NCBI GenBank assembly: GCA_034190325.1
Contig: JAXHST010000006.1
Span: 1-32,000, forward strand
Length of the DNA: 32,000 nt
Reading direction: 5' to 3'
DNA from: Thermoplasmatota archaeon
GTDB taxonomy: Archaea > Thermoplasmatota > UBA186 > UBA287
Shown: positions 4,705 to 26,318 of the stretch, one piece after another
How positions within the stretch are numbered: position 1 is the first letter of the stretch
How the letters are laid out: every line of letters begins with the position of its first letter
Made by a program: the position numbers and the translations under genes
The notes under the pieces: generated by a model
Database searches by the model: none
Seen by the model: the letters and a program-made list of their open reading frames with translations, nothing else
What the model was told of the DNA's origin: nothing

Positions 4705-5265
4705 ATGAAGGAGGAGAAGGAAGCGTTTAGAGAATCTCAGGATATCATAAAAAAGTTGGTAAATGAGCTTCCATACCCTGATGAGCATGGGAAGGTAATA
4801 AGGCTCAACAGAAGGTTTGTGCTTCTTGACGTTTCTTACATCCCCTTTGATGTCCTCTATGGAATAGACGAAATTTTTGGTCCTGTATCAAAGACCATAC
4901 TCTTCAGGATTGGTAGAAGATGGGGTGATGAGATCTACGCAAGGTATGAATCCCTTGGTTTTGGTAGAGAGGATTGTCTGAAGCTCTCTGCGGCTGGGGC
5001 ATGGTACTTTGGATGGGGGATTTTTACATTCGAACTAGGAGCTGAAAGCTCCAGAGCAAGGATATACAACTCATTTGAGGTTGAGAGCATGGTTGTGCGT
5101 AAGGGAATAAGCGATGAGAATTCATGTCACCTATTTCCTGGGGTTATATCTGGTATTTACAGTAGATTCCTTGGAGAAGAGTGCTCAATACACGAGGAAA
5201 AGTGTGCAGCCAGAGGTGATGGATACTGTGAGCTGGTTGCTACTCCAGGGATCGATTTGACCTGA
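4705..5265 (+). CDS. V4R (4-vinyl-reductase-type) domain protein
   Basis: 186-aa ORF. The C-terminal HLFPGVISGIYSRFLGEECSIHEEKCAARGDGYCEL matches the V4R signature (aromatic/Gly helix followed by C-x3-G-D-x2-C). Confidence 0.7.
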   Translation: MKEEKEAFRESQDIIKKLVNELPYPDEHGKVIRLNRRFVLLDVSYIPFDVLYGIDEIFGPVSKTILFRIGRRWGDEIYARYESLGFGREDCLKLSAAGAWYFGWGIFTFELGAESSRARIYNSFEVESMVVRKGISDENSCHLFPGVISGIYSRFLGEECSIHEEKCAARGDGYCELVATPGIDLT

Positions 5266-7287: not shown

Positions 7288-7719
7288 ATGGCTGAAGCAA
7301 TAACCGAAATGATCTTCTTTATAGTGGGCATATCCATAGCCCTATCTGTGATAGGAGCGGTTGTTTTATCAACAGAGAGGATGAATAGTGCTATGGGAGC
7401 TACAAGCTCGGCCCTTTATGATACGATGAGCTCAAAGATAAAGATAATAAGTGATCCCCTCTCCATGAGCGGCTCGCCATCAAAGCCATTGATTATTTAT
7501 GTGCAGAACGTGGGTAAAACTACCCTGAGCACAAATGCTGTGCTGATGATAGACGGAGAGGTAAAGGAGTGCAGGGAATACATGCTTGAGGGTGAGGTAT
7601 GGACTCCTTCTTCCGTGCTCTGCCTCGAGATAGAGCACCCCAGGCTTCCAGAGGGAGAGCACAGAGTGACAGTGGTGGCTGAAAATGGCGTTATGAATTC
7701 GATGGTCTTCAGGGTGTAA
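7288..7719 (+). CDS. archaellum FlaF/FlaG (ArlF/ArlG)-family protein
   Basis: 143-aa ORF. Has an N-terminal hydrophobic helix (EMIFFIVGISIALSVIGAVVL) followed by a beta-rich domain. It lies immediately upstream of arlH. Assignment to F versus G is not resolvable by eye. Confidence 0.65.
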   Translation: MAEAITEMIFFIVGISIALSVIGAVVLSTERMNSAMGATSSALYDTMSSKIKIISDPLSMSGSPSKPLIIYVQNVGKTTLSTNAVLMIDGEVKECREYMLEGEVWTPSSVLCLEIEHPRLPEGEHRVTVVAENGVMNSMVFRV

Positions 7720-7721
7720 AA

Positions 7722-8423
7722 ATGTACGAAATAGATCTTGATAGGGACAGGATGGGGCAGAGGCTTGGTGGAGGATTTCCAAAAGGCTCACTCGTTCTCA
7801 TGATGGGGCCATTCGGTAGTGGCAAATCTATTCTATGCCAGAGGTTTACCTATGGTTTTCTGAAGCACGATCATTCTGTTACATACACATCAACGGAGCT
7901 GACAACAAAAGGTTTCATTGAGCAGATGGGTTCCCTTGATTACCCTGTTGAGAGTTACATATACCACAGAAAGCTTCTGTATATCCCTGTTTATCCGATA
8001 ATAGGCAGAGCTGCGGATAGAAGCGGATTTTTGACCAAGCTCCTGGGCCCCAGAGCAAAAGCGCTATATTTAAATGAGACAATTGTCATAGATTCACTTT
8101 CTTCACTCATAGGTCAGGATCTTGAGAGCAAAAAGAGGGCTTTGGACGTTCTCTCATTCTTCAAGAAGCTGGCAGAGACAAAGAACAGGTGTGTGATCAT
8201 GACAGTAGATCCCGCGGAGATGCCCGATGAAATACTCTTAACCTTCAAAGCGGTCTGCGATGTGTTTCTAACCGTAGAGACCGTGATCGCTGAGGGGGGA
8301 GATGTGCTTCACAGGCTTACGGTTAACAGGTTTTTGAATCCTGAGAGAAGGATTACTGGCACAACAATGTTCAGGGTAGAGCCACATGCAGGAACTGTTG
8401 TTGAGATCGCAGAGGTAGCATGA
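7722..8423 (+). CDS. arlH: archaellum protein ArlH (FlaH), KaiC/RecA-like ATPase
   Basis: 233-aa ORF. GGGFPKGSLVLMMGPFGSGKS is an intact Walker A. Position between the FlaF/G-like gene and arlI. Confidence 0.85.
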   Translation: MYEIDLDRDRMGQRLGGGFPKGSLVLMMGPFGSGKSILCQRFTYGFLKHDHSVTYTSTELTTKGFIEQMGSLDYPVESYIYHRKLLYIPVYPIIGRAADRSGFLTKLLGPRAKALYLNETIVIDSLSSLIGQDLESKKRALDVLSFFKKLAETKNRCVIMTVDPAEMPDEILLTFKAVCDVFLTVETVIAEGGDVLHRLTVNRFLNPERRITGTTMFRVEPHAGTVVEIAEVA

Positions 8424-10045
8424 TAACAGCAGACCTTTTGAACGAGGCTATAAGCAGAAACCCCCATCTGGGTGAGTATCTACGCAGATATGAGCAGCAG
8501 TATGGTGTTACACCGGAGTTCCATGAACAATTGACCTATGATATGAGATACCTGAAAACTCCGAACATGATATACCCGGTGGGGGATCCCATTTTCATTC
8601 ATATCCATACAGATACTTCATCCGAAGAGATCCGGTATACCGCAATAGAGCCCCAGCTGAGCGAAGAGGCTGAGAGCAAAAGGAAGAGGATAATGGGCTA
8701 TATCTATGATAAGGTGCCCGAGGTGGACTTTGAGAAGGAGACGGATATAAGGAGTATTATACTGAGGCTCTATGATGAGGCTGTTTCTGCAAAGAGATCC
8801 TTTTTTAAGAGAGGTAGTATACACGTCAGCAAAGAGGAATATGAGCTGATAAAGTACTACATCCAGAGGGATACCCTGGAGCACGGAAAGCTTCAGCCGC
8901 TGATGAAGGATCCCTACATTGAGGATATACACTGCATAGGTCTAGATCCAATACACCTCAACCACAAAATATTTCAGATGGTGGAGACGAACATCAGCTT
9001 CACAAGCTGGGAGGATCTCGATGAATATCTGAAGATGCTTGGGGAGAAGGTAGGAAGCCCCGTCTCTGAGGGGCACCCTATAATCGATGCAGCCATGCCC
9101 GATGGCTCCCGACTGAATGTGGTCTACTCAAAGGACGTGAGTATAAGGGGCTCCAGTTTTACCATAAGAAAGTTCGCTGAGGAAGCAATAAGCGTAACCC
9201 AGCTCATAAAGTTTGGAACTTTAAGCGCAGAGGTTGCTGCCTATGTGTGGTTATGTTTGGAAAATGACACGAGCCTCTTCATGTGCGGTGAAACAGCAAG
9301 CGGTAAGACAACGACGCTCAATGCAATAATTCCTTTCATACCATCTGATGCAAAGATCTATAGCGTGGAAGAAACGCCAGAGCTTCATATCCCGCATGAA
9401 ACATGGCAGCAGATGTTAACAAGGGATACAGGGCAGGAGCAGGGCAATGTGACAATGTTTGATCTCCTGAAGGCTGCTCTGCGTTCAAGACCACACTATG
9501 TTATAGTTGGTGAGATCAGGGGACCTGAGGGCGCTATAGCCTTTCAAGCAATGCAGACAGGGCACCCTGTCCTATCAACATTCCATGCTTCATCAGTAAG
9601 AAAGATGATCCAGAGGCTTAGCGGGAGCCCCATCAACGTTCCTATACAGTTTATGGACCTGTTAAATGCAGCAATATTCCAGCAGATAGTCTATGTGAAG
9701 GGAGTCCTTGAGAGGAGAGTCACAAGCGTTGAAGAGGTCATAGGTTATTCCAGAGAGAGCCAGGGGGTGGTAACAAGAAAGATATTTTCTTATGATCCTG
9801 CTAGAGATGAGCACAGGTTTGATGGGCTCTTCAATTCCGCTGTGCTTGAAACAAAGATAGCCCCACGTTACGGAATAGAGGATCCTAGAGAGGTATATGC
9901 TTTGCTTGAAAAGAGGGCAAAGATACTTCAGTTGCTTGCTGATGCCAATATAGTGAGCTACAGGAGGGTTACACAGCTAATGAATGATTATCGTAGAGAG
10001 GGTGACAAAGCTCTGCCAGTCGAGATAAGAGCGCAGGTGCGTTGA
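8420..10045 (+). CDS. arlI: archaellum motor ATPase ArlI (FlaI), type II/IV secretion ATPase family
   Basis: 541-aa ORF. Walker A GETASGKTTTLNA, then VGEIRGPEG and the His-box region TGHPVLSTFHA. ATGA overlap with arlH. Confidence 0.95.
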   Translation: MITADLLNEAISRNPHLGEYLRRYEQQYGVTPEFHEQLTYDMRYLKTPNMIYPVGDPIFIHIHTDTSSEEIRYTAIEPQLSEEAESKRKRIMGYIYDKVPEVDFEKETDIRSIILRLYDEAVSAKRSFFKRGSIHVSKEEYELIKYYIQRDTLEHGKLQPLMKDPYIEDIHCIGLDPIHLNHKIFQMVETNISFTSWEDLDEYLKMLGEKVGSPVSEGHPIIDAAMPDGSRLNVVYSKDVSIRGSSFTIRKFAEEAISVTQLIKFGTLSAEVAAYVWLCLENDTSLFMCGETASGKTTTLNAIIPFIPSDAKIYSVEETPELHIPHETWQQMLTRDTGQEQGNVTMFDLLKAALRSRPHYVIVGEIRGPEGAIAFQAMQTGHPVLSTFHASSVRKMIQRLSGSPINVPIQFMDLLNAAIFQQIVYVKGVLERRVTSVEEVIGYSRESQGVVTRKIFSYDPARDEHRFDGLFNSAVLETKIAPRYGIEDPREVYALLEKRAKILQLLADANIVSYRRVTQLMNDYRREGDKALPVEIRAQVR

Positions 10046-10046
10046 A

Positions 10047-11705
10047 ATGAATGGCGCAAATGCATACAAGGTTATGAAGAAAGATTCTTTCAGTTATAAC
10101 CTTCTCTACACTCTGCCTGTTGCTCTGGTTACATTCCTTCTTGCTTTTTATGTTATGTTTCTCGGTTATGGTCTTGTCTATTCTGTACTTTTCATAATCC
10201 TAGCAGCAGTATGCACACTCTTTGTTGCCCTTTATCCATTCATGAACGCGTATGTGAGAAACAATCAGATAAACAATCTCATGCCCTTAATTATAACCCA
10301 CTTAGCTACGCTCTCTACCTCCCCCATGAACAGGGACCAGATAATAGACGAAATAATAGAGAGAAAAGAATATGGGCCTGCTGTTGAAGAGTTCATGAGG
10401 GTAAATGAGCTTACAAAGAATTTAAATATAAGCTTTGCTGATGCCTGCAGGATTCAGGCAAAAAGGACCACAAGCCAGACTATGGCTGACTTTTTTGACA
10501 GGCTCGCTAACTCAGCAGATGCAGGGGAGCGGTTCTCCACATTTCTGAATAACGAGCAGCGGTCAGCTTTTCAAATCTATGAGATAGCGTATGCTGGCTC
10601 TATAAACACGCTAGATCTCACAAAAGAGGTTTACATAAGTGCGATATCTTCCATACTATTTATGCTCATAATGCTGTGTATCCTTCCATTCATTCAGGCA
10701 GCTCCGATAACTATGTATGTAATGCTATCAATAATCCTCTTCCTGGTAACCATCCTGTGTCTTGTTTTTGGGGTGAGGCTAATTCTGCCAGCGGATCCCA
10801 TATGGGTACAAAACCGGAAAAAGACAGAGGTTGATAGAAGGATAAAGCTTTACTCTGCGATATCAATTCCTTTTTGCTTTGTGGTTTTTTTCATCTTTGC
10901 CTACCTCTTACCTTTTATCCCCCTACAGATTGATGTTGCCGCAGCACTAACGCCACCCATTTTCTGTGGTTATTATGCGAGAAAGGAGCAGGCAAAGGTA
11001 AACAACAGGGATGAAAACTATCCAACATTCATAAGGGCTGTAGGAAGCACCGCAGGGGTTGTTAAGAAGATAGAGGGTTCTATAGAAAGGCTGAGCACCC
11101 ACGAGTTCGGGAATCTGAGTGAGATGATAAGCAATTTGAATAAAAGGCTGAAAACCAAGATAAAAGCTACCGAAGATCCGTGGCATACCTTCGGCAGAGA
11201 GAGTGGTAGCTACCTCATATACGAATTCACACACATGTTTGCTTCCTCAATAGATGCGGGAAGTGATATAGCTAAGGGAGCTATAACAATAAATAACAAT
11301 TTCCTGAGTATCCTGGGCATGAGAAAGAAGCGCTTCCAGTCAGCCGCAGGTTATAGATGGGTTGTCTATGGTGTTGGTGTTAGCGTAGGCATAGTTTTTT
11401 CCATAGCATTCAGCGTTATTTTTATGATGCAGGATCTTTATGGCATGGTCTCTGCATCTACATTTTCAACCGAGTACCTGGGGAGCATGTTCACCGCTAC
11501 AGCACCCCTTCCCTACATAATGAAGCCCATAGCATCAATAATAATCATAGTTGCATATTCCATAGCTGGTGCATTTGTGATAAAGGATTCTGAGAGTGGC
11601 AGGGATGCCACAATGTTTGTTGACGTGGTAGGGATAGCATGGCTTTTAGCCATCTCCTGGGTTATCAGTGATGTCGTCATGAGCTGGGCTACTGCAGGAA
11701 TATGA
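10047..11705 (+). CDS. arlJ: archaellum membrane platform protein ArlJ (FlaJ)
   Basis: 552-aa polytopic membrane ORF directly after arlI. Shows the two-repeat FlaJ/TadC-like organisation, with cytoplasmic domains between TM bundles. Confidence 0.85.
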   Translation: MNGANAYKVMKKDSFSYNLLYTLPVALVTFLLAFYVMFLGYGLVYSVLFIILAAVCTLFVALYPFMNAYVRNNQINNLMPLIITHLATLSTSPMNRDQIIDEIIERKEYGPAVEEFMRVNELTKNLNISFADACRIQAKRTTSQTMADFFDRLANSADAGERFSTFLNNEQRSAFQIYEIAYAGSINTLDLTKEVYISAISSILFMLIMLCILPFIQAAPITMYVMLSIILFLVTILCLVFGVRLILPADPIWVQNRKKTEVDRRIKLYSAISIPFCFVVFFIFAYLLPFIPLQIDVAAALTPPIFCGYYARKEQAKVNNRDENYPTFIRAVGSTAGVVKKIEGSIERLSTHEFGNLSEMISNLNKRLKTKIKATEDPWHTFGRESGSYLIYEFTHMFASSIDAGSDIAKGAITINNNFLSILGMRKKRFQSAAGYRWVVYGVGVSVGIVFSIAFSVIFMMQDLYGMVSASTFSTEYLGSMFTATAPLPYIMKPIASIIIIVAYSIAGAFVIKDSESGRDATMFVDVVGIAWLLAISWVISDVVMSWATAGI

Positions 11706-12397
11706 AGGTCGTTGGTATAAGAGTCAAGGATGAGCGCACGTATAAAAAGATAGCTAAGGAGCTTGAGGCTTTGAACATTCCATTCATAAATCTCAACAGA
11801 GTTCCCAGCGCAGACATTGCGATAGTTCTAACAGATGATCAGGGTAAAGGTATATCCGTTGGCAGGAATGTTAAAAGAGCCATAAGGGGGTGTCTTCGAG
11901 CTTATAGCGGGAGATTTAGAGAGATAGTTATAGGCATCGATCCTGGACCAAGACCAGGGATAGCTGTTTTCGGGGATGAAAGGGAGATCTACAGTTGCAT
12001 AGCAGAGAGCCCTGAGAAGGCTGCTGCATTTGTAAAGAAAATAACAGAGATGTATGAGCATGAATCGTGCGTTATAAGGATAGGTGATGGGGCAAAAGTT
12101 TATAGAAATAGAATAATAAACAGGCTGCTCCCTCTGAGGATAGAGATTGTGGATGAAAGGAGAACAAGTGGGATGCACATGGAGTCAGCAAAAAAGATAG
12201 CATTTCTGAATGGTACAGTTATAAAAGAAGAGATCAGGCAAGAGTTTGAAGAAGGTGAGCTGAAGGAGATACAGAACGAGAGCAGGAGCATCTCCGGGAT
12301 AACGATCTCTAAAGAATTAGCAAAAGAGGTTGCTGAGGGGAAGATAGATATGAAAAAAGCTATAAAAAAACAAAACAAAAGGAGGAAAAATAAATGA
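11702..12397 (+). CDS. RNase-H-fold (RuvC/YqgF-like) putative nuclease with Lys-rich tail
   Basis: 231-aa ORF with an ATGA overlap with arlJ. VIGIDPGPRPGIAVFGD resembles the first acidic motif of RuvC/YqgF. VDERRTS resembles the YqgF DERxT motif. C-terminal tail is KKAIKKQNKRRKNK. Confidence 0.45.
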   Translation: MKVVGIRVKDERTYKKIAKELEALNIPFINLNRVPSADIAIVLTDDQGKGISVGRNVKRAIRGCLRAYSGRFREIVIGIDPGPRPGIAVFGDEREIYSCIAESPEKAAAFVKKITEMYEHESCVIRIGDGAKVYRNRIINRLLPLRIEIVDERRTSGMHMESAKKIAFLNGTVIKEEIRQEFEEGELKEIQNESRSISGITISKELAKEVAEGKIDMKKAIKKQNKRRKNK

Positions 12398-19592: not shown

Positions 19593-20027
19593 ATGTTTAT
19601 GGATGAAGGATATGAGTATGAGATTCCAAAAATGAAGCCCCGCATAGGCTTTATTCTCTCTGTTATTGCAGGAATGCTTATAATTCTGAGCGCTGTGATG
19701 GTTTTGTACCTTGGGGTCAATCCATCCCTGCTTGAAGCTGAAGAGATGCAGGGGACACTGCAGGAGCTTGCTGAGCGCTCTGGTATGGAAACCTCTGAGG
19801 TCATGGATCTTATGTCCTCAATGTATCTTGGTATGGGGATCTTTGGTGTTGTTTCTGGCTTGCTTATCCTGCTGGGAGGAGCTTTAGCTTACTATCGCGG
19901 TTTCAGGGTTGGTGGGGGAGTAATTGTTCTTCTCTTCTCCATCCTATCTCTATTTGGTGGTGGAGGGTTATTCTTAGGACTGATACTTGGGGTCATAGGT
20001 GGGGTTTTGATACTGATGAACCGTTAG
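19593..20027 (+). CDS. small integral membrane protein, Gly-rich TM helices, unknown function
   Basis: 144-aa ORF with about 3 predicted TM segments, for example GGVIVLLFSILSLFGGGGLFLGLILGVIGGVLIL. No recognisable motif. Confidence 0.5.
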   Translation: MFMDEGYEYEIPKMKPRIGFILSVIAGMLIILSAVMVLYLGVNPSLLEAEEMQGTLQELAERSGMETSEVMDLMSSMYLGMGIFGVVSGLLILLGGALAYYRGFRVGGGVIVLLFSILSLFGGGGLFLGLILGVIGGVLILMNR

Positions 20028-20503
20028 ATCTTCAGCAGACCTATAAACCTATCAGCGCTGGAATTTGCCCACTCAAAAAAGGTAAAGGGCGCATCGCGCA
20101 GGGGGCTATTGCAGAAAGGCAGCCTTGCGAGCAGCGGTAGCGCAAGGTCTGAGAGTCTGCTCATGAATGAAAAGTAGTTTGACATGTATGCGCACATAGC
20201 AGAGATTATAAAGAAAGAGGACAGATCAAAGCATTTGTTTATGCTCCCTCTAATAGTTTCAATGTGCAAAGGGATGAGCGAAAGCTCTCCCAGCGTAAGA
20301 GCTTCTATCACTTCATTTATTGAGTCAGCCAGCTCATTTAGAAATAAAAGATCGCAGAGGAAAAGGACAAACTTCCTCATGGAAAAATGCTCTCCTGACG
20401 CAGGTGCCCTGGCAGATACCTCGCCCTCTTCAACCTGCGCCTTAGCCAGAGGGAGAATGAGGAGAATAAAAAAAAAGAAAAAAGAAAAAGCGAGCCCCCT
20501 CAC
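20024..20503 (-). CDS. hypothetical protein with signal-peptide-like N-terminus (last gene of the Roadblock/GTPase operon)
   Basis: 159-aa ORF with a 4-nt overlap with the upstream KaiC-like gene. N-terminus is MRGLAFSFFFFFILLILPLAKAQ. No recognisable family. The antisense ORF 20184-20507 looks like low-quality sequence. Confidence 0.45.
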   Translation of the reverse strand: MRGLAFSFFFFFILLILPLAKAQVEEGEVSARAPASGEHFSMRKFVLFLCDLLFLNELADSINEVIEALTLGELSLIPLHIETIRGSINKCFDLSSFFIISAMCAYMSNYFSFMSRLSDLALPLLARLPFCNSPLRDAPFTFFEWANSSADRFIGLLKI

Positions 20504-21240
20504 CTGATTCTCCCTATCTCAAAAGCTCCTGTCACATCGATAGTGCTCTTCTCAAGCCGGTATTCGACCCAGTTTCTGGATTTTGTCCCTCCAAAGCCCT
20601 GAAGCCTCAGATATAACTTTGACTCTCTAGTCTCTTCTTTAAACTCTAAGACTCCATCCATTATCCCTTTGAATAACTGAACCTCAGATTCGGGATGCAC
20701 CCCCGCGCCCATCACAAACATTGTTGTTGCTCCTGCGCTCTTTGCTCTACCTTTCATGATCTGAACGAACCTGAAGACCGTAGGGGCATTGGTGTTCGTT
20801 ATAAGGGTAGTGAGAGAGTCAAGGACTATGAGGTGATGCATATGCTTTCCCATGACCATCTGCTGTGCTTTGTTTAGCGCCAGGTTGATAGCAGCAAGAT
20901 CCATAGGGCTAGGTACATACTCTATGTATTTGTCCTTCTCTGTTACCCCTATGCTCATGGAATAGACATCCATGTATCTGACAAGTCCATTTGTTTCATA
21001 TGTTTGATATTTTGAATCCAGACTGGTTAACTCATCTCTCAGCTGGGTGGCAGGGGCATCTGTTGTTATGAATATTGTGGGTATTCCATGTCTCAAACAC
21101 TCAACAGAAAAGTTTTTTACAAACTGCTCTTTCCCTATGAATGGTGGTCCATACACCAGAAAAGCAGATCTGGCAGGAATGCCGCCCATAAGGAGAGTAT
21201 CCAGCCCTTCTATACCCGTAACAAGTTTTCTATCGCTCAT
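20500..21240 (-). CDS. KaiC/RecA-like (RAD55-type) protein with atypical Walker A
   Basis: 246-aa ORF. TGIEGLDTLLMGGIPARSAFLVYGPPFIGKEQF, where the Walker A reads GPPFIGKE (21127-21150), with Glu in place of Ser/Thr. Walker-B-like HHLIVLDSLTTL. Confidence 0.75.
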   Translation of the reverse strand: MSDRKLVTGIEGLDTLLMGGIPARSAFLVYGPPFIGKEQFVKNFSVECLRHGIPTIFITTDAPATQLRDELTSLDSKYQTYETNGLVRYMDVYSMSIGVTEKDKYIEYVPSPMDLAAINLALNKAQQMVMGKHMHHLIVLDSLTTLITNTNAPTVFRFVQIMKGRAKSAGATTMFVMGAGVHPESEVQLFKGIMDGVLEFKEETRESKLYLRLQGFGGTKSRNWVEYRLEKSTIDVTGAFEIGRIR

Positions 21241-22409
21241 TTTTCTTCCTCCTTTCTATGCAGTATTAAATCAACCAGGGTCTCAAATGCTTTAAGCACA
21301 TGTTCTTTATCCTTTGCAACACACGGAAGTATTGGTATCTCCTCCGGCAGCCTCATCCTCTCCTTTATTTCTTCAGGCGGCAAAGCTCCCGGCTCATCCT
21401 GTTTGTTTGCCAGGAATATTATGGGCATCCCGGTCTTCCATACCTCCTGCCACATGGCCTTTGATCTATCGAATGTCTCCGGTCTTGCGCTGTCAACCAT
21501 GACTATTGTGCCTATTGCATTCAGCGATAGTGTTCTTAGCAAAGGGTCAAACCTTTCTTGTCCGGGGGTTCCGAATATGTCTGCGCTCACACCCGCATGC
21601 TCTACGTGTCCATGGTCCAGCGCAATGGTTGTCCCGAGCCTGTCAACGGATACTGCCCTTGTAGATAGGGTATGTATGAACGTTGATTTACCAGAGTGAA
21701 AGGGTCCTGTGACTATGATCTTTGGTATGTACACTCTCACACCCCCGGGCTTTATGACCTTGAACATAACGGATCTGTTTTCTATGTTCTCGAGCCATCT
21801 TGCCTTAGCTACCTCAAAATACTCTCCGAAAACAACTCTTTGCTCTATACCCTTTATATTTATAAGACAATCAACATCCCTTATCTTCTCTATTGTTTTT
21901 TCATCATACGGCCAGAGTATGAAAGACAAAAAGGTTGTTGTTGCTTTTTTAAAGGTCTCTTTTAACTTTTCAAGGTTCTCAACGAAGCTCTGCTCCCCAC
22001 AGTAGTCAACAAGTGTTGAGAGAGCAGGTATAGCAAGAATGCCCCCCTCTACAGAATCCAGCGCCTTTTCTATGGTCTCTATTATCTCTTTTATATCATT
22101 CGGGTGTTTGACAATAAACTCTGCATCGGAGGGTGCGCCTATCAACATGGAGTAGCAGTCAACAAAAACTACCCTGCTTCTATACCGCTCCAGACTCCAT
22201 CCATATTCCTCAAATTCCCTCAATAGATACTGCGGGGGTTTTGAAAGAGCTACAATAACCCCCTCCTTCCCTGCAGAGATATTCTCATAAAATGCCTGGT
22301 ACACAAAGGGATCACCTTCGACGGTGGGTTCTGTGAGAAAAAGAACAGTGCTACCCCCGGGTATGGAACCCAGCATCTCATCCAGCACCACTATGTTAGT
22401 ATTAACCAT
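21237..22409 (-). CDS. fusion protein: degenerate KaiC-like domain (aa 1-225) plus Ras-like small GTPase (aa 229-385)
   Basis: 390-aa ORF. The N-domain is paralogous to the downstream KaiC-like protein (LGSIPGGSTVLFLTEPTVEGDPF; VFVDCYS; GGILAIPALSTL) but has no GK[ST] and no Walker B Asp. The C-domain has G1 GPFHSGKST (21681-21707), G3 DIFGTPGQERF, G4 NKQD and a G5-like CVAK. Confidence 0.8.
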   Translation of the reverse strand: MVNTNIVVLDEMLGSIPGGSTVLFLTEPTVEGDPFVYQAFYENISAGKEGVIVALSKPPQYLLREFEEYGWSLERYRSRVVFVDCYSMLIGAPSDAEFIVKHPNDIKEIIETIEKALDSVEGGILAIPALSTLVDYCGEQSFVENLEKLKETFKKATTTFLSFILWPYDEKTIEKIRDVDCLINIKGIEQRVVFGEYFEVAKARWLENIENRSVMFKVIKPGGVRVYIPKIIVTGPFHSGKSTFIHTLSTRAVSVDRLGTTIALDHGHVEHAGVSADIFGTPGQERFDPLLRTLSLNAIGTIVMVDSARPETFDRSKAMWQEVWKTGMPIIFLANKQDEPGALPPEEIKERMRLPEEIPILPCVAKDKEHVLKAFETLVDLILHRKEEEK

Positions 22410-22413
22410 TTTT

Positions 22414-22932
22414 CTATTCCCCCTTCTCTTTCAGAACTATCCTGCATCTATCGTCTCCCTTTGCTAAGCATTCCTCCTCCGTACTCTCATATTTTTTGTT
22501 GTAGAGCTCGGAGAAAAAGCCAGCAAAGTAACCTGCAAAATAAGAGTCCGCTGCCCTTCCTTTTGCCCTCTTTCCTATAGGAAAGCCTTTGCTCGCTGTG
22601 ATGTAGATCTCCTTACTGTTTTCCTCTATTTCTATCTCAACATCACCTATCCCCGTGGCTTTTGTGAATTCGCACAGCTTTTTTAGAGCTTCTTCCCCAG
22701 CCTCTCCCGCAAAATCTCTGTAAACACTTTTTCCATAGTCCTCCCCCACGAAGTAGAGAAGTGTTGCTGCAGGAGCTCCTACTATCCTTGTGATCCTCTC
22801 ATAGAGGGAGAAGAAGAGGTCACTCTTAACCAGGATGACCGAGGTTGAGTCTATCTCCAATCCTTCATTGAACTTCAGTTTTTCTTTCCACTCTTTGAGC
22901 AGGTCTTCAGCCTTTTCGCTTTTGTATAGCAT
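22414..22932 (-). CDS. V4R domain protein
   Basis: 172-aa ORF. DSYFAGYFAGFFSELY ... EECLAKGDDRCRIV is the V4R C-terminal signature, C-x3-G-D-x2-C. Confidence 0.7.
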   Translation of the reverse strand: MLYKSEKAEDLLKEWKEKLKFNEGLEIDSTSVILVKSDLFFSLYERITRIVGAPAATLLYFVGEDYGKSVYRDFAGEAGEEALKKLCEFTKATGIGDVEIEIEENSKEIYITASKGFPIGKRAKGRAADSYFAGYFAGFFSELYNKKYESTEEECLAKGDDRCRIVLKEKGE

Positions 22933-22936
22933 ACTT

Positions 22937-23317
22937 TCACCCCAGTATCTCCTTTATTCTGTTCACAGCCTTCTCTGCCTGTATAAAGAGCATGCCCAGG
23001 TTGACATTGTATCTGCAGAGGATAACCAGCAGAGTATCGGCACTGGCGCCCGTTATAATCATGCGGGTTGTCTTTGTCTCCACAAGAACCCTCTCAGGAG
23101 GATCCCTGGCCAGCTCCATCATTGCTGTTTCGGCTGCGCCGAGCATCGTAGCGCTCATAGCCGAAAAAGCTTCCTTACCAACCCTTGTTGGAAGGTGCGA
23201 TATTATGATAAGCCCGTCTCTAGAGACTATCGCACTCCCTTCTATTCCCGTCAGCCTATCAAGGTCCTGAAGCACCTCGTTTAGCATTTCCTGTTTTGTT
23301 TCTGCCATTTTAACCAC
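22937..23317 (-). CDS. Roadblock/LC7 (MglB-like) domain protein
   Basis: 126-aa ORF. LTGIEGSAIVSRDGLIIISHLP ... AFSAMSATMLGAAETAMMEL ... VLVETKTTRMIITGASADTLLVIL follows the alpha-beta-beta-alpha-beta-beta pattern typical of Roadblock/LC7. Confidence 0.8.
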   Translation of the reverse strand: MVKMAETKQEMLNEVLQDLDRLTGIEGSAIVSRDGLIIISHLPTRVGKEAFSAMSATMLGAAETAMMELARDPPERVLVETKTTRMIITGASADTLLVILCRYNVNLGMLFIQAEKAVNRIKEILG

Positions 23318-23777
23318 CTACCGTTACCAGATCCAACACCTCTTCACTTCCTTCCTGCTCCGGGAGGAGCCTGAAACTGAGTCTGTTGACAGCAACGCTC
23401 ATGTTGAAGTAGTCATTTAGAAAAGCCATTGCGACAGCTGAAAGGAAGGTGCATGGATGTTTATTGCTGCGTACGAGCTTTTCTATCCTTTCATAATCAA
23501 ATATGTTATAGCTCTTTATATAAATTTCACTATTTTTTCTCTCCACAATTATCTTATTGCAGTATCCTTCCTCTTCATAATGATGAAGAAGTTCGCTGAG
23601 AGAGACAACAGGATCTTTAAGATCTTTGGGTATCCACTTTCTAGCTTCAGCCCTTTTTAACAGTGTACCCCCTATACGCCTTACTATTGCTGGTGTTGAG
23701 ACTCCAAACAGATCCGAGATTGAAGAGGTTAGAGAATACAGCAGAACATTAGCGAGATCTTTCTTCACCTTTGCCAT
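23310..23777 (-). CDS. V4R-like fold protein lacking the C-terminal Cys motif
   Basis: 155-aa ORF. By eye it aligns segment-for-segment with the neighbouring V4R protein: LLYSLTSSISDLFGVSTPAIVRRIGG versus LYERITRIVGAPAATLLYFVGE; SEIYIKS versus KEIYITAS; HPCTFLSAVAMAFLNDYF versus DSYFAGYFAGFFSELY. It has no CxxxGDxxC tail. Confidence 0.4.
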   Translation of the reverse strand: MAKVKKDLANVLLYSLTSSISDLFGVSTPAIVRRIGGTLLKRAEARKWIPKDLKDPVVSLSELLHHYEEEGYCNKIIVERKNSEIYIKSYNIFDYERIEKLVRSNKHPCTFLSAVAMAFLNDYFNMSVAVNRLSFRLLPEQEGSEEVLDLVTVGG

Positions 23778-23791
23778 TATGGCATATTTGT

Positions 23792-23820
23792 AAACATATT
23801 AAATAAATGTTTCTATCAAA
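23792..23820 (-). promoter_or_regulatory. putative promoter with TATA-like box embedded in an inverted repeat, upstream of the Roadblock/GTPase operon
   Basis: The minus strand reads AGAAACAT-TTATTTAAT-ATGTTT-ACAAATATGCCATA-ATG. The AAACAT/ATGTTT inverted repeat (23792-23797 / 23807-23812) flanks an A/T box. That box is centred about 25 nt upstream of the ATG at 23777, which is consistent with a leaderless archaeal transcript. Confidence 0.35.
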
Positions 23821-23821
23821 G

Positions 23822-23932
23822 CGGACGCGGGGGGATTTTCATGCAGGTTTTGAAAGGATGAAATCCTTCATTTTGAACCCCCGACTCCCGGCTTAGGAGG
23901 CCGGTGCCTTATCCAAGCTAGGCCACGCGCCC
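23822..23932 (-). tRNA. tRNA-Arg (anticodon CCU) with a ~36-nt intron inside the T-loop
   Basis: Hand-folded on the minus strand. Acceptor GGGCGCG/CGCGTCC (one G-U), D-arm GCCT-AGCTTGGATA-AGGC, anticodon arm CCGGC-CTCCTAA-GCCGG (CCT = plus 23895-23897). Variable loop GAGTC, T-stem GGGGG/CCCCC. 43 nt (23835-23877) lie between the T-stem halves instead of 7. Discriminator G; no CCA. Confidence 0.85.
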
Positions 23933-24470: not shown

Positions 24471-24911
24471 ATGACTACGCCGTTTGATGTTGGTGCAGAC
24501 CTCCTGATCGAGAGGTTGGCTGAGAAGCTTAGGAGCGATGAGAATGAGAATATAAAGCCCCCAGAGTGGGCAGGATACGTGAAAACAGGAGCGCAAAAAG
24601 AAAAATTGCCAGCGCGGAAAGATTGGTGGTATATCAGATCTGCAGCGGTGTTGAGGAAGCTTTACATTAAAGGCCCTCTGGGAGTTGAAAGGTTAAGAGC
24701 AGAGTATGGTGGAGCCAAGAGAAGAGGGTGCAGACCTCAAAAAGCCACCAAAGGAAGCGGGGCTATTATAAGAGAGATTTTGCAACAGCTTGAAAGCGCT
24801 GGTGTCGTCTCAAAAGTAGAGAAAGAAGGAAGAGCTTTGACACCGAAGGGAAGGGCTCTTCTAGACTCTGTTGCCTATGAGCTTAGAGTAGAGAGCAGAG
24901 AGGTGAGTTAA
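24471..24911 (+). CDS. rps19e: 30S ribosomal protein eS19
   Basis: 146-aa ORF. Contains PEWAGYVKTGAQKEKLP, DWWYIRSAAVLRKLYIKGPLGVERLRAEYGG and GSGAIIREILQQLE. Confidence 0.95.
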   Translation: MTTPFDVGADLLIERLAEKLRSDENENIKPPEWAGYVKTGAQKEKLPARKDWWYIRSAAVLRKLYIKGPLGVERLRAEYGGAKRRGCRPQKATKGSGAIIREILQQLESAGVVSKVEKEGRALTPKGRALLDSVAYELRVESREVS

Positions 24912-24947
24912 ACGGACGAAGAACTTGAAAAGCTAAGAAAAAAGAGA

Positions 24948-25235
24948 ATGCAGGAGCTCCTACAACAGCAGCCTGGCGTGGAGGAAGAGAGGGAAGAAAA
25001 AGAGCAGGGGGAGAGAAAAGAGATCCTGAGAAGGATAATGACCCCGGAAGCAAGGGAGAGGCTCTCCAGGGTAAAGCTTGTGAAGCCAGAGTTTGCTCAA
25101 CAGATAGAGGAGCAGCTCATATATCTTGCACAGAGTGGCAGACTTAGATCGCAGGTTGATGATGCCATGCTTAAAAAAATACTTGCGCAGTTACAGCAGG
25201 ATAAGGATATAAAGATAAGGAGGATAGAGAAATGA
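24948..25235 (+). CDS. PDCD5/TFAR19-like dsDNA-binding protein (COG2118 family)
   Basis: 95-aa [26 protein letters not shown] ... [11 protein letters not shown] is typical of the family. The homologous-looking N-terminal codons (TDEELEKLRKKR, 24912-24947) lie upstream of the first ATG. Confidence 0.8.
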
Positions 25236-25387
25236 GCAGAAATAAGACAACGGGACTTAAGAGAAGATTAATGAAAGCAAAGAACAGCAATCGCAGGGTT
25301 CCTGCATGGGCTATAATGAGGACTGAAAGGAAGCTCATGTTCAACACCAAGCAGAGGAACTGGAGAAGGAGAAAGCTTAAAATATAG
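25232..25387 (+). CDS. rpl39e: 50S ribosomal protein eL39
   Basis: 51-aa ORF not in the supplied track: [57 protein letters not shown] lies at 25219-25224. ATGA overlap with the preceding gene. Confidence 0.9.
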
Positions 25388-25401
25388 CTGGGAGATGGAA
25401 T

Positions 25402-25671
25402 ATGGACGAAGCGGAGAGAGGAATACTTGAGCGTGTTTATACTATTCCGATAGATTTTAAGAATATACCAAAGAAGCAAAGAGCCAGGAGAGCTATAAAA
25501 GAGGTAGAGCACTTCATAGAGAGGCACATGAAGTCAGATTCTGTCTGGATAGATAACAGGATAAATGAGATCATATGGGCAAGGGGTGCTGAAAATCCGC
25601 CATCCAGGATAAAAGTTAAGGCAACAAAGTTCGAGGATGGCCTTGTGGAGGTAGTTCCGCTGGAAGAATGA
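25402..25671 (+). CDS. rpl31e: 50S ribosomal protein eL31
   Basis: 89-aa ORF. Contains ERVYTIPI, KKQRARRAIKEVEHFIERHMK, VWIDNRINEIIWARGAENPPSRIKV. Confidence 0.9.
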   Translation: MDEAERGILERVYTIPIDFKNIPKKQRARRAIKEVEHFIERHMKSDSVWIDNRINEIIWARGAENPPSRIKVKATKFEDGLVEVVPLEE

Positions 25672-26318
25672 TGCTGCAGCTTGATTTCGATGGAAGCGAT
25701 TTCATAGGTATCTATGGAAGGATATGCGATAAATACGGTGTTTTTGGATCCAATGTTCCGGATGCAACCATAAAAGAGGTAGAAAAGAACCTGGGCATAG
25801 AGGCTATAAAGACGACAATAGCATATGTCAATATAACAGGCTCAATGCTCGCCATGAATTCAAATGGAATGATGGTCAATAACTTTATAAATGAGAAAGA
25901 AAAGAAAAAACTCGAGGGGCTGGGCTTGAACATCGGTTATACTGCTCCAAACATGAACGCTGCGGGAAATATAATACTGGTGAACGATAAGCGAGCGCTG
26001 GTGCATCCTAAGATTCCAAAGCTCAAAGACATGGAGGATATCTTTGGTGTTGAAGTGGTTAGAGAAGATATAGGCTTTCGGAACGTTGGCATGGTATTCG
26101 CACTGACAAATAAAGGGGTGCTTTGCCATCCGGATCTTAGCGATGAAAAGGTAAAGATGATAGAAGAGCTGTTTGGCGTTAAAGGGAGCTGGGGCACAGT
26201 AAATCACGGCATGCCTTTTGTTGGTTGCGGGCTGGTATGCAATTCGAAAGGTGTTGTTATAGGAAAGAGAACAACAAGGATAGAGATGACAAGGATCCAG
26301 GACGCTTTAGATTTTTGA
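25668..26318 (+). CDS. eif6: translation initiation factor 6 (aIF6)
   Basis: 216-aa ORF showing the pentein-repeat pattern, with repeated G(S/N).(V/I)G motifs: DFDGSDFIGIYG, NITGSMLAMNSNG, NAAGNIILVNDK, RNVGMVFALTNKG, FVGCGLVCNSKG. Confidence 0.9.
   Translation: MMLQLDFDGSDFIGIYGRICDKYGVFGSNVPDATIKEVEKNLGIEAIKTTIAYVNITGSMLAMNSNGMMVNNFINEKEKKKLEGLGLNIGYTAPNMNAAGNIILVNDKRALVHPKIPKLKDMEDIFGVEVVREDIGFRNVGMVFALTNKGVLCHPDLSDEKVKMIEELFGVKGSWGTVNHGMPFVGCGLVCNSKGVVIGKRTTRIEMTRIQDALDF

Follow-up and report, generated by a model that had tools for sequence, protein, structure and literature searches.

Introduction

The small GTPases of the MglA family work together with Roadblock proteins, which are their GTPase-activating proteins (GAPs) in Thermus and Myxococcus (PMC3199381). 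Roadblock proteins have a GAP role in mycobacterial conservons as well (PMC9769811), and a further small conservon protein acts as guanine nucleotide exchange factor (GEF; PMC11343762). Here, we describe an archaeal operon in which proteins of this kind are joined by KaiC-like and V4R-fold proteins. It is located on the minus strand (20024-23777) of a stretch of 32,000 nucleotides from a Thermoplasmatota archaeon (GenBank assembly GCA_034190325.1, contig JAXHST010000006.1, positions 1 to 32,000), which is called the window throughout, and it consists of six close-packed genes just downstream of a tRNA-Arg(CCT) gene, as given by the listing of open reading frames (ORFs) of the window. Three of these genes form a triad that recurs in several archaeal lineages. 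The explanation that we favour, and that we hold to be probable, though only just, is that the locus encodes a GTP switch of the MglA/MglB type on a non-catalytic KaiC-like scaffold, with the V4R-fold proteins as ligand input.

The closest described systems are found in MglA groups 2 to 5, with archaeal group 4 (Wuichet and Sogaard-Andersen 2014, PMC4316618). According to that survey, the GTPases of groups 2 to 5 have GTPGQ as their G3 motif and a second Thr in G2, which replaces the intrinsic Arg finger of group 1, and their cognate MglB proteins carry a conserved Asp-Gly pair. A canonical NKxD ([NT]KxD) G4 motif is reported there for groups 1, 4 and 5, and archaeal group 4 is placed as the nearest prokaryotic relative of Arf, Sar and SR-beta. 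The window shares with these systems Thr-Thr in G2, GTPGQ in G3, NKxD in G4, a Roadblock protein with Asp-Gly in the same operon and an archaeal host. It differs from MglA/MglB in that the GTPase forms one chain with an inactivated KaiC-like domain, and that a second KaiC-like gene almost always accompanies it. Moreover, the survey, as far as its accessible text goes, began from short single-domain GTPases and gives group 4 without conserved neighbours.

The actinobacterial conservons (CvnA-D or MfpB-E) are likewise operons in which a Roadblock protein and an MglA-family GTPase occur with a nucleotide-dependent sensor-like protein and an accessory protein. They belong to another domain of life, being bacterial and not archaeal, and neither a histidine-kinase-like CvnA nor a DUF742 protein CvnC is recognised by Pfam or NCBIfam among the six proteins of the window, which has KaiC-like and V4R-fold proteins instead. 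The archaeal KaiC-like ATPases and inactivated KaiC signalling proteins (iKaiC; Makarova, Galperin and Koonin 2017, as cited in PMC5847659) are comparable to both KaiC-like modules of the window, which score above the Pfam KaiC gathering threshold and, like iKaiC, have inactivated active sites; what sets the window apart is their partner, a small GTPase accompanied by its Roadblock regulator. The V4R sensors (MopR/PoxR/CapR, MJ1460 and the C-terminus of MsvR) resemble the third protein of the operon, ORF3, whose family profile spans the MopR/PoxR sensor domain, but neither ORF3 nor ORF1 is joined to a DNA-binding or AAA+ output, both being stand-alone proteins, and ORF3 appears to lack the first Cys of the cluster. 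Finally, TRAPP, with its Bet3-fold subunits, is a Rab GEF (PMC10152722). Bet3/TRAPPC3 is the closest match to the predicted fold of ORF1, which differs from it in having no detectable sequence similarity to V4R. Bet3/V4R-fold proteins are represented in the window by Pfam (ORF3) and by predicted fold (ORF1), and the operon has a Roadblock protein in place of a longin-fold subunit.

The module of the window is best likened to MglA/MglB or to a conservon with KaiC-like parts, and is a full member of neither. Neither a KaiC-GTPase-Roadblock module nor an operon link between V4R and GTPase genes is described in the literature searched, which did not cover Makarova, Galperin and Koonin (2017). Within the same limits, the view of a first-pass annotation of this DNA that the module has had no functional characterisation can be upheld.

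The KaiC-like/GTPase fusion and its partners

The gene order in the window is ORF1, ORF2 (Roadblock), ORF3 (V4R), ORF4 (fusion), ORF5 (KaiC-like) and ORF6; all six minus-strand frames delimited in the first-pass annotation were recovered, with the same coordinates, by the ORF listing. The central protein is ORF4 (21237-22409, minus strand; ORF listing and Pfam), a fusion of 390 aa. Its residues 1-228 (21726-22409) constitute a KaiC/RecA-like domain, matched by Pfam KaiC (PF06745) over residues 2-228 with an E-value of 2.1e-16 and 60.5 bits (cut-off 26.6). This domain is inactivated: Walker A is replaced by TEPTVEGD, and an alignment of 19 homologs has the family consensus PGVEGxVF, in which the Walker A Lys is never present. 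The nearest solved structures are PH0186 and PH0284. Residues 229-390 (21237-21725) constitute a Ras-superfamily GTPase of the Arf-like or MglA group 2-5 type (Ras 3.4e-11, Arf 5e-11, TIGR00231 2.6e-14), the Ras/Arf match covering residues 229-385. The fusion architecture is present in nearly all of 120 homologs among the matches listed.

The motifs of this GTPase, namely G1 GPFHSGKST (family GPFxxGKS), G2 GTT, G3 GTPGQ and G4 NKQD, are invariant across the 19 homologs. This includes T260 and T261 of G2, which stands in the context RLGTTIALDHG, and G280, T281, P282, G283 and Q284 of G3, in the context DIFGTPGQERF. With GTPGQ in G3, the second Thr in G2, a canonical G1 P-loop and NKQD in G4, the domain has the features of MglA groups 2-5; it departs from the small MglA GTPases, which are single-domain proteins, by the 228-residue KaiC-like domain at its N-terminus. 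The nearest solved structures are Arl8 and Arl10 (3.5e-10), and the domain is closer to Arl8/Arf than to any solved MglA. This likeness to Arl8, Arl10 and Arf fits the kinship of group 4 MglA with Arf, Sar and SR-beta that is stated in PMC4316618.

ORF2 (22937-23308, minus strand) is a Roadblock/LC7 protein of the MglB type (Pfam Robl_LC7 3.2e-14; 52.9 bits, cut-off 23), with 123 aa from the ATG at 23308 or 126 aa from an alternative GTG at 23317. An Asp-Gly pair (SRDGL, within IVSRDGLII) is kept in all relatives examined. The nearest solved structures are the archaeal Roadblock proteins 7f8m and 7yh1 and CvnB5 of a Streptomyces conservon (3leq, 3e-7).

ORF5 (20500-21240, minus strand; 246 aa) is a stand-alone KaiC-like protein (Pfam KaiC 2.3e-25; 89.8 bits, cut-off 26.6) with degenerate ATPase motifs. 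Its Walker A reads GPPFIGKE, with Gly-Lys kept and Glu where Ser/Thr is expected, and in TTDA, which aligns with ALEE of PH0284, D-A stands where a catalytic Glu pair would follow beta-strand 2. Within the ORF5 family (n=77), the residue after GPPMSGK is E in 47 members, D in 15, S in 7 and N in 4; 53 of the 77 have Asn where the Walker B Asp is expected. The P-loop Gly-Lys is kept in 75 of the 77, and most have a Glu after the second beta-strand. The domain calls that had been made from the letters of the DNA for these three proteins, a Roadblock/LC7 protein, a fusion of a KaiC-like domain with a Ras-like GTPase and a stand-alone KaiC-like protein, are therefore all borne out by Pfam. The further claim that the GTPase is the only intact nucleotide site is essentially right, ORF4 having lost the Walker A Lys and ORF5 having Glu for Ser/Thr as well as D-A.

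ORF5 and the KaiC-like half of ORF4 show no significant pairwise similarity when compared by BLASTP; the two modules are therefore not recent duplicates. Both also match DUF7090 and DUF7504, and both have PH0284 (2dr3), deposited with six chains, as their closest solved homolog. ORF5 aligns best with the CI half of KaiC and the N-terminus of ORF4 with the CII half. There is a hint in these alignments that the usual order, ORF5 followed by ORF4, may resemble a split double-domain KaiC bearing a GTPase. The two are not KaiC proper: their scores for the NCBIfam KaiC equivalogs are all far under the respective cut-offs, there are two single KaiC-like domains on separate genes instead of a tandem CI-CII, and in catalytic terms both depart from a bona fide KaiC on every count.

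These observations bear on an alternative in which the operon encodes an ATP-driven timer or kinase hub of the KaiC type, with ORF5 turning over ATP or autophosphorylating and thereby gating the GTPase as output. The nearly universal P-loop Gly-Lys of the ORF5 family and the Glu after the second beta-strand speak for it, as does the proposal, cited in PMC5847659, that KaiC-like ATPases are archaeal signalling hubs. We nevertheless consider such a timer very unlikely, since most family members have exchanged the Ser/Thr of Walker A for Glu or Asp and the Asp of Walker B for Asn, ORF5 itself has D-A for the catalytic Glu pair, and neither a KaiB-like protein nor another known KaiC partner is recognised by Pfam or NCBIfam among the operon proteins.

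Conservation of the triad

With one genome scanned per species, relatives of the fusion were recovered from 427 species genomes, and the best 79 loci were analysed. In these best 79 of 427, the arrangement that is conserved is a KaiC-like gene followed by the fusion gene and then the Roadblock gene, all on the same strand and with gaps whose median is about 0 nt. The KaiC-like gene is directly upstream of the fusion in 74 of 79 testable cases, and in 73 of 81 the next gene downstream is that of the Roadblock protein. Both partners are adjacent for 68 of the 83 fusion genes in the 79 loci. This triad is found in Methanosarcinales (ANME-2, Methanoperedens), Methanocellales, Hydrothermarchaeota, Archaeoglobales, Alkanophaga, Thermoplasmata and others, usually in an order unlike that of the window.

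Whether all six genes travel together in archaea had been raised as a question at first. They do not: only the triad is conserved (68/83), and ORF1 and ORF6 are limited to the clade of the window. The full order of the window is confined to its own Thermoplasmatota clade (loci L001 and L080-L085), with identities of 96% (L001), 81-84% (L080, L081, L082), 72% (L083) or 55% (L085). The order and spacing of ORF1 to ORF5 are kept in four diverged contigs (L080-L083; 72-84% identity on ORF4, dS >1), ORF6 being absent in L083, the nearly identical L001 has the block too, and the partial contigs L084 (a fragment) and L085 retain the same gene order. All six genes are under purifying selection, with an omega of 0.02-0.13 for ORF1, ORF2 and ORF5 and of 0.16-0.43 for ORF6.

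In 7 of the 79 loci, V4R genes neighbour the triad within its operon, frequently with two or three paralogs in tandem; Archaeoglobaceae and several uncultured Halobacteriota are the hosts. Recruitment of V4R genes is seen repeatedly, in L025, L031, L033, L074, L063 and L079 and in the window's clade. V4R is a recurrent accessory of the triad and not part of its core, and ORF1 and ORF6 are lineage additions. Expanded modules are present in L025, L031 and L033 (uncultured Halobacteriota, tar biofilm) and in L074, where two KaiC-GTPase fusions, three to four Roadblock paralogs and three tandem V4R genes form one same-strand cluster.

V4R-fold proteins and ORF6

ORF3 (22414-22932, minus strand; 172 aa) is a V4R-domain protein and a candidate sensor of a small ligand or metal. 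It matches Pfam V4R (PF02830) with 6.5e-10 and 39.4 bits (gathering cut-off 31) and the C-terminal region of MsvR with 2.6e-12. The ORF3 family profile spans the whole phenol-sensor domain of MopR/PoxR/CapR (5e-14; residues 18-173 against MopR), and MJ1460 is matched as well. Of the three cysteines of the cluster, ORF3 has two (C155 and C163); the column in which other V4R neighbours have the first Cys is Cys-free in the window's clade. The initial description of ORF3 as a canonical V4R thus holds for the domain, which is above gathering, and not fully for the cluster, of which the first Cys appears to be absent.

ORF1 (23310-23777, minus strand; 155 aa) is a clade-restricted protein with a predicted TRAPPC3/Bet3-V4R-like fold (AF2 and Foldseek). 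It has no Pfam or NCBIfam family, and its homologs amount to 7 clusters among 5.8 billion proteins and, in a profile search, to 12 representatives among 1.84 billion. Iterated HMM searches with ORF1 and ORF6 in the 79 related loci returned homologs only in L001. The omega of 0.05-0.09 points to strong constraint. The AF2 model (pLDDT 76, pTM 0.75) has as best Foldseek match the TRAPPC3 of a Thorarchaeota archaeon (7yh3; TM 0.52, E about 4e-3, hence with weak statistics); the other natural proteins matched are Bet3-family TRAPP subunits from yeast, fly and Naegleria, MopR/PoxR, H-NOX and BcsD. The folds of TRAPPC3/Bet3, MopR/PoxR, H-NOX and BcsD form one related group (PMC10933270). By sequence, ORF1 is not recognised as V4R by Pfam, by NCBIfam, by hhalign against the V4R alignment (probability 2.9%) or by a profile search of the PDB. 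With moderate confidence, ORF1 is predicted to have a V4R/Bet3-like fold, so that the original call of a V4R-like protein without the Cys motif survives at the level of the fold only, Pfam and hhalign being silent.

Distant ORF1-like domains are encoded in L086-L090 (P0129, P0130, P0133 and P0135; E 1e-10 to 1e-13), some of them with an N-terminal extension of about 200 aa. The contexts of the more distant ORF1-like proteins (P0129-P0135) are unrelated and unannotated: the genes in L086-L090 adjoin large unannotated proteins (495-737 aa), and no Roadblock, GTPase or KaiC gene is nearby. The ORF1 fold family therefore has other partnerships. Elsewhere in the window, a third V4R-type protein of 186 aa is encoded at 4705-5265 on the plus strand (MsvR C-terminal region 1.4e-7, MobR V4R 3e-6), just upstream of the gene for the alpha subunit of methylmalonyl-CoA decarboxylase and about 2 kb from arlG.

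Given the folds of ORF1 and ORF3, it could be imagined that the Bet3/V4R pair and the Roadblock dimer constitute an exchange-factor and GAP platform acting directly on the Arf-like GTPase, on a KaiC-like ring. The operon would then be a non-Asgard counterpart, analogue or forerunner, of the eukaryotic multisubunit GEF/GAP platforms TRAPP and Ragulator. The best structural match of ORF1 is an archaeal TRAPPC3, eukaryotic Bet3-family proteins match too, V4R has been proposed as the ancestor of Bet3 (PMC2253512), triad-linked V4R genes occur in tandem pairs or triples, and the GTPase is nearest to Arl8/Arf. Furthermore, the GTPase genes of Asgard archaea are generally not operon-linked to Roadblock, longin or TRAPPC3 genes (PMC10933270), a link that the window operon would supply. 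Against this stands that V4R domains of known function, as in MopR/PoxR, are small-ligand sensors and not GEFs, that the catalytic surface of TRAPP includes longin-fold subunits, of which none is found among the operon proteins, and that V4R is missing from most triad loci. On balance, a relationship of this kind to TRAPP and Ragulator seems unlikely.

ORF6 (20024-20503, minus strand; 159 aa), whose GTG start overlaps the stop of ORF5, is specific to the clade and combines a signal-like N-terminal helix with a predicted helical bundle. It belongs to no Pfam or NCBIfam family, and its homologs form 8 clusters with 38-100% identity, all of about 158 aa. They conserve the N-terminus (MRGLA, a hydrophobic stretch, AQVEEGE), and the one strongly hydrophobic segment, residues 1-25, agrees with the signal-like N-terminus recognised in the first-pass annotation. 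The AF2 model (pLDDT 73) is an all-helical bundle without a fold match in the PDB. ORF6 is a real, fast-evolving, clade-specific gene.

A proposed GTP switch on a KaiC-like scaffold

If the locus is indeed an MglA/MglB-type switch on a KaiC-like scaffold, its core would be made up of ORF5, with its crippled ATP site, ORF4, with its dead KaiC-like domain and its Arf-like or MglA group 2-5 GTPase, and the MglB-type Roadblock protein ORF2. The KaiC-like modules of ORF4 and ORF5 would assemble into an oligomer of the RecA/KaiC type, serving as a platform and not as an enzyme and displaying the tethered GTPases; the six chains deposited for PH0284 (2dr3) are a hint of such an oligomer. The Roadblock dimer would act on the GTPase of ORF4 as a GAP or as a regulator of the GAP/GEF type, as MglB does for MglA, and MfpD/CvnB for the conservon GTPases. 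The GTP or GDP state of ORF4 would, in turn, alter what the platform binds. ORF3, as a sensor of the MopR/PoxR type, and ORF1, with its divergent, Cys-poor, paralog-like fold, would most plausibly form an input pair that senses a ligand or metal and biases nucleotide exchange, and ORF6 would be an exported or membrane-anchored helical protein.

Several points weigh against this scheme. The contacts that it requires, between Roadblock and GTPase, between the two KaiC-like modules and between V4R and GTPase, are deduced from the linkage of the genes and from precedents in their families. As most triad loci have no V4R gene, V4R cannot be an obligatory part of the switch, and a subset of the Methanocellales (L002-L004, L006, L039) is without an adjacent Roadblock gene. 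ORF5 retains the Gly-Lys of the P-loop; nucleotide binding, and even hydrolysis, may therefore persist, and the protein may be more than a scaffold. Finally, the assignment of ORF1 to V4R/Bet3 depends on a moderate model and on a TRAPPC3 match with the modest E-value and TM-score given above, and the hhalign result is non-significant.

Transcription unit and upstream tRNA gene

The genes of the operon are separated by 4-nt gaps (22933-22936 and 22410-22413) or overlap by 4 nt (21237-21240 and 20500-20503), exactly as first noted. The 8-nt overlap of ORF1 and ORF2 (23310-23317), which had been noted along with them, depends on a GTG start and fares less well. The longest frame of ORF2 opens with this GTG at 23317, but relatives keep an ATG (MAETKQ...) at the position equivalent to 23308, and the junction is therefore more likely a 1-nt gap. 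All intergenic gaps are too small for an internal promoter, and a purine-rich, Shine-Dalgarno-like motif of the GGAGG/GGTG type stands before every one of ORFs 2 to 6. About 26 nt upstream of the ATG of ORF1, a TATA-like box (TTTATTTAA; 23799-23807, minus strand) can be read from the sequence, with motif and spacing kept in L001, L080, L081, L082 and L083. It is the putative promoter of the operon. A single leaderless transcript, starting from this box just downstream of the putatively intron-containing tRNA-Arg gene, would cover all six genes. Such a combination of a leaderless first gene and internal genes led by Shine-Dalgarno motifs is the customary layout of archaeal operons.

At the other end of the operon, the 3' end of ORF6 overlaps by 4 nt (20024-20027) with the 3' end of a convergent membrane-protein gene (19593-20027, plus strand), which leaves no space for a terminator between the two; the counterpart of this gene in L083 has weak matches to DUF4064 and DUF6114. 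Long antisense ORFs overlap the Roadblock gene (22835-23284, plus strand) and the fusion gene (21088-21699, plus strand). The frame opposite the Roadblock gene (about 144 aa) is open in 28 related loci, and it beat the true gene in longest-ORF calling. Both antisense frames were rejected as genes and are probably shadows of the constrained sense frame.

The tRNA-Arg(CCT) gene (23821-23932, minus strand) that the first-pass annotation had placed directly upstream of the operon is found once an insert in its T-loop is removed. ARAGORN and Rfam, the latter at its gathering threshold, call no tRNA anywhere in the unmodified window, and under permissive settings Rfam yields no more than a partial tRNA match (18 bits, 23888-23923). 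The minus strand reads, however, as a full cloverleaf with anticodon CCT, broken by about 36 nt inside the T-loop (about 23839-23874), and ARAGORN calls tRNA-Arg(cct) at about 23932-23821 when 32-42 nt of the T-loop are deleted in silico. It is this intron-like insert that made both programs miss the gene. The insertion site is the same in L001 and L080 and the exons are identical; the insert differs in sequence in L001 and in both sequence and length in L080. With the same site, identical exons and diverged contents, the insert behaves as an intron, situated in the T-loop and thus away from the canonical position 37/38.

Genomic context

The window also contains the archaellum genes ArlG/H/I/J (7288-11705), and no che genes are seen among its larger ORFs, as had been stated before. 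Their presence led to the earlier guess that the module steers the archaellum close by, or else a type IV pilus, as MglA/MglB acts on polarity and pili in Myxococcus. ArlH is itself KaiC-like, the loci for type IV pili of archaea are reported to contain Roadblock proteins and several KaiC arCOGs (PMC4858521), and MglA and MglB are polarity regulators (PMC3199381, PMC2907295). Even so, about 8.3 kb of housekeeping genes (D-aminoacyl-tRNA deacylase, PGI/PMI, ApbE, AglB and Nep1) lie between the operon and arlJ, and the hosts of the triad are mostly methanogen or ANME lineages with unrelated neighbour genes. An ArlH/I/J homolog is found within 6 kb in just 3 of the 79 related loci, and synteny therefore gives a motility role no support. 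The guess does not hold up in this respect, and we regard steering of the archaellum or a pilus as quite unlikely. The last 4 nt of arlJ are shared with an ORF of 231 aa (11702-12397, plus strand), which has no Pfam or NCBIfam family and may be an archaellum accessory gene.

Another recurrent neighbour is a ribosomal cluster. Genes for S19e and a PDCD5-like protein are found within 6 kb in 36 of the 79 loci as well as in the window's clade. Methanoperedens and ANME-2 have the triad, YhbY-like, S19e and PDCD5-like genes on one strand (e.g., L040 7535-8640), and the clade of the window has S19e, PDCD5-like, L39e, L31e and eIF6 (24471-26318, plus strand) in opposite orientation to the operon. This linkage in two phyla could be either a matter of positional inheritance or a functional hint. 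A GTPase module linked to translation or the ribosome would account for the frequency of the linkage, the one-strand order and the position of the cluster beside the operon. We find it hardly credible, however: in the window the cluster is divergent, dcd and the tRNA gene intervening, Methanocellales, Hydrothermarchaeota and Archaeoglobales do not show the linkage, and the GTPase is Arf/MglA-like and not of a translation class. Positional inheritance can account for what is seen. An anti-phage defence system was considered as well and rejected, as PADLOC gave only marginal matches (E 0.0026 or weaker).

Conclusions

The cooperation of a small GTPase with a Roadblock protein is understood in Myxococcus, Thermus and the conservons, but the archaeal counterparts are without known function. 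Similarly, the proposal that KaiC-like proteins are signalling hubs in archaea rests on little experiment. The triad physically joins a KaiC-like domain and a GTPase. As it is widespread, occurring in methane oxidisers (ANME, Methanoperedens), Methanocellales, Hydrothermarchaeota, Archaeoglobales and a Thermoplasmatota clade, and biochemically simple, it offers a concrete entry for testing both ideas. The repeated recruitment of V4R/Bet3 folds furthermore raises the question of whether the prokaryotic ancestors of TRAPP subunits were already partners of GTPases or just ligand sensors. Should the operon turn out, against our expectation, to be a counterpart of TRAPP and Ragulator, three eukaryote-signature folds would, for the first time, be seen linked genetically within a single transcription unit, and the operon would provide a tractable model for the origin of multisubunit GTPase regulators.

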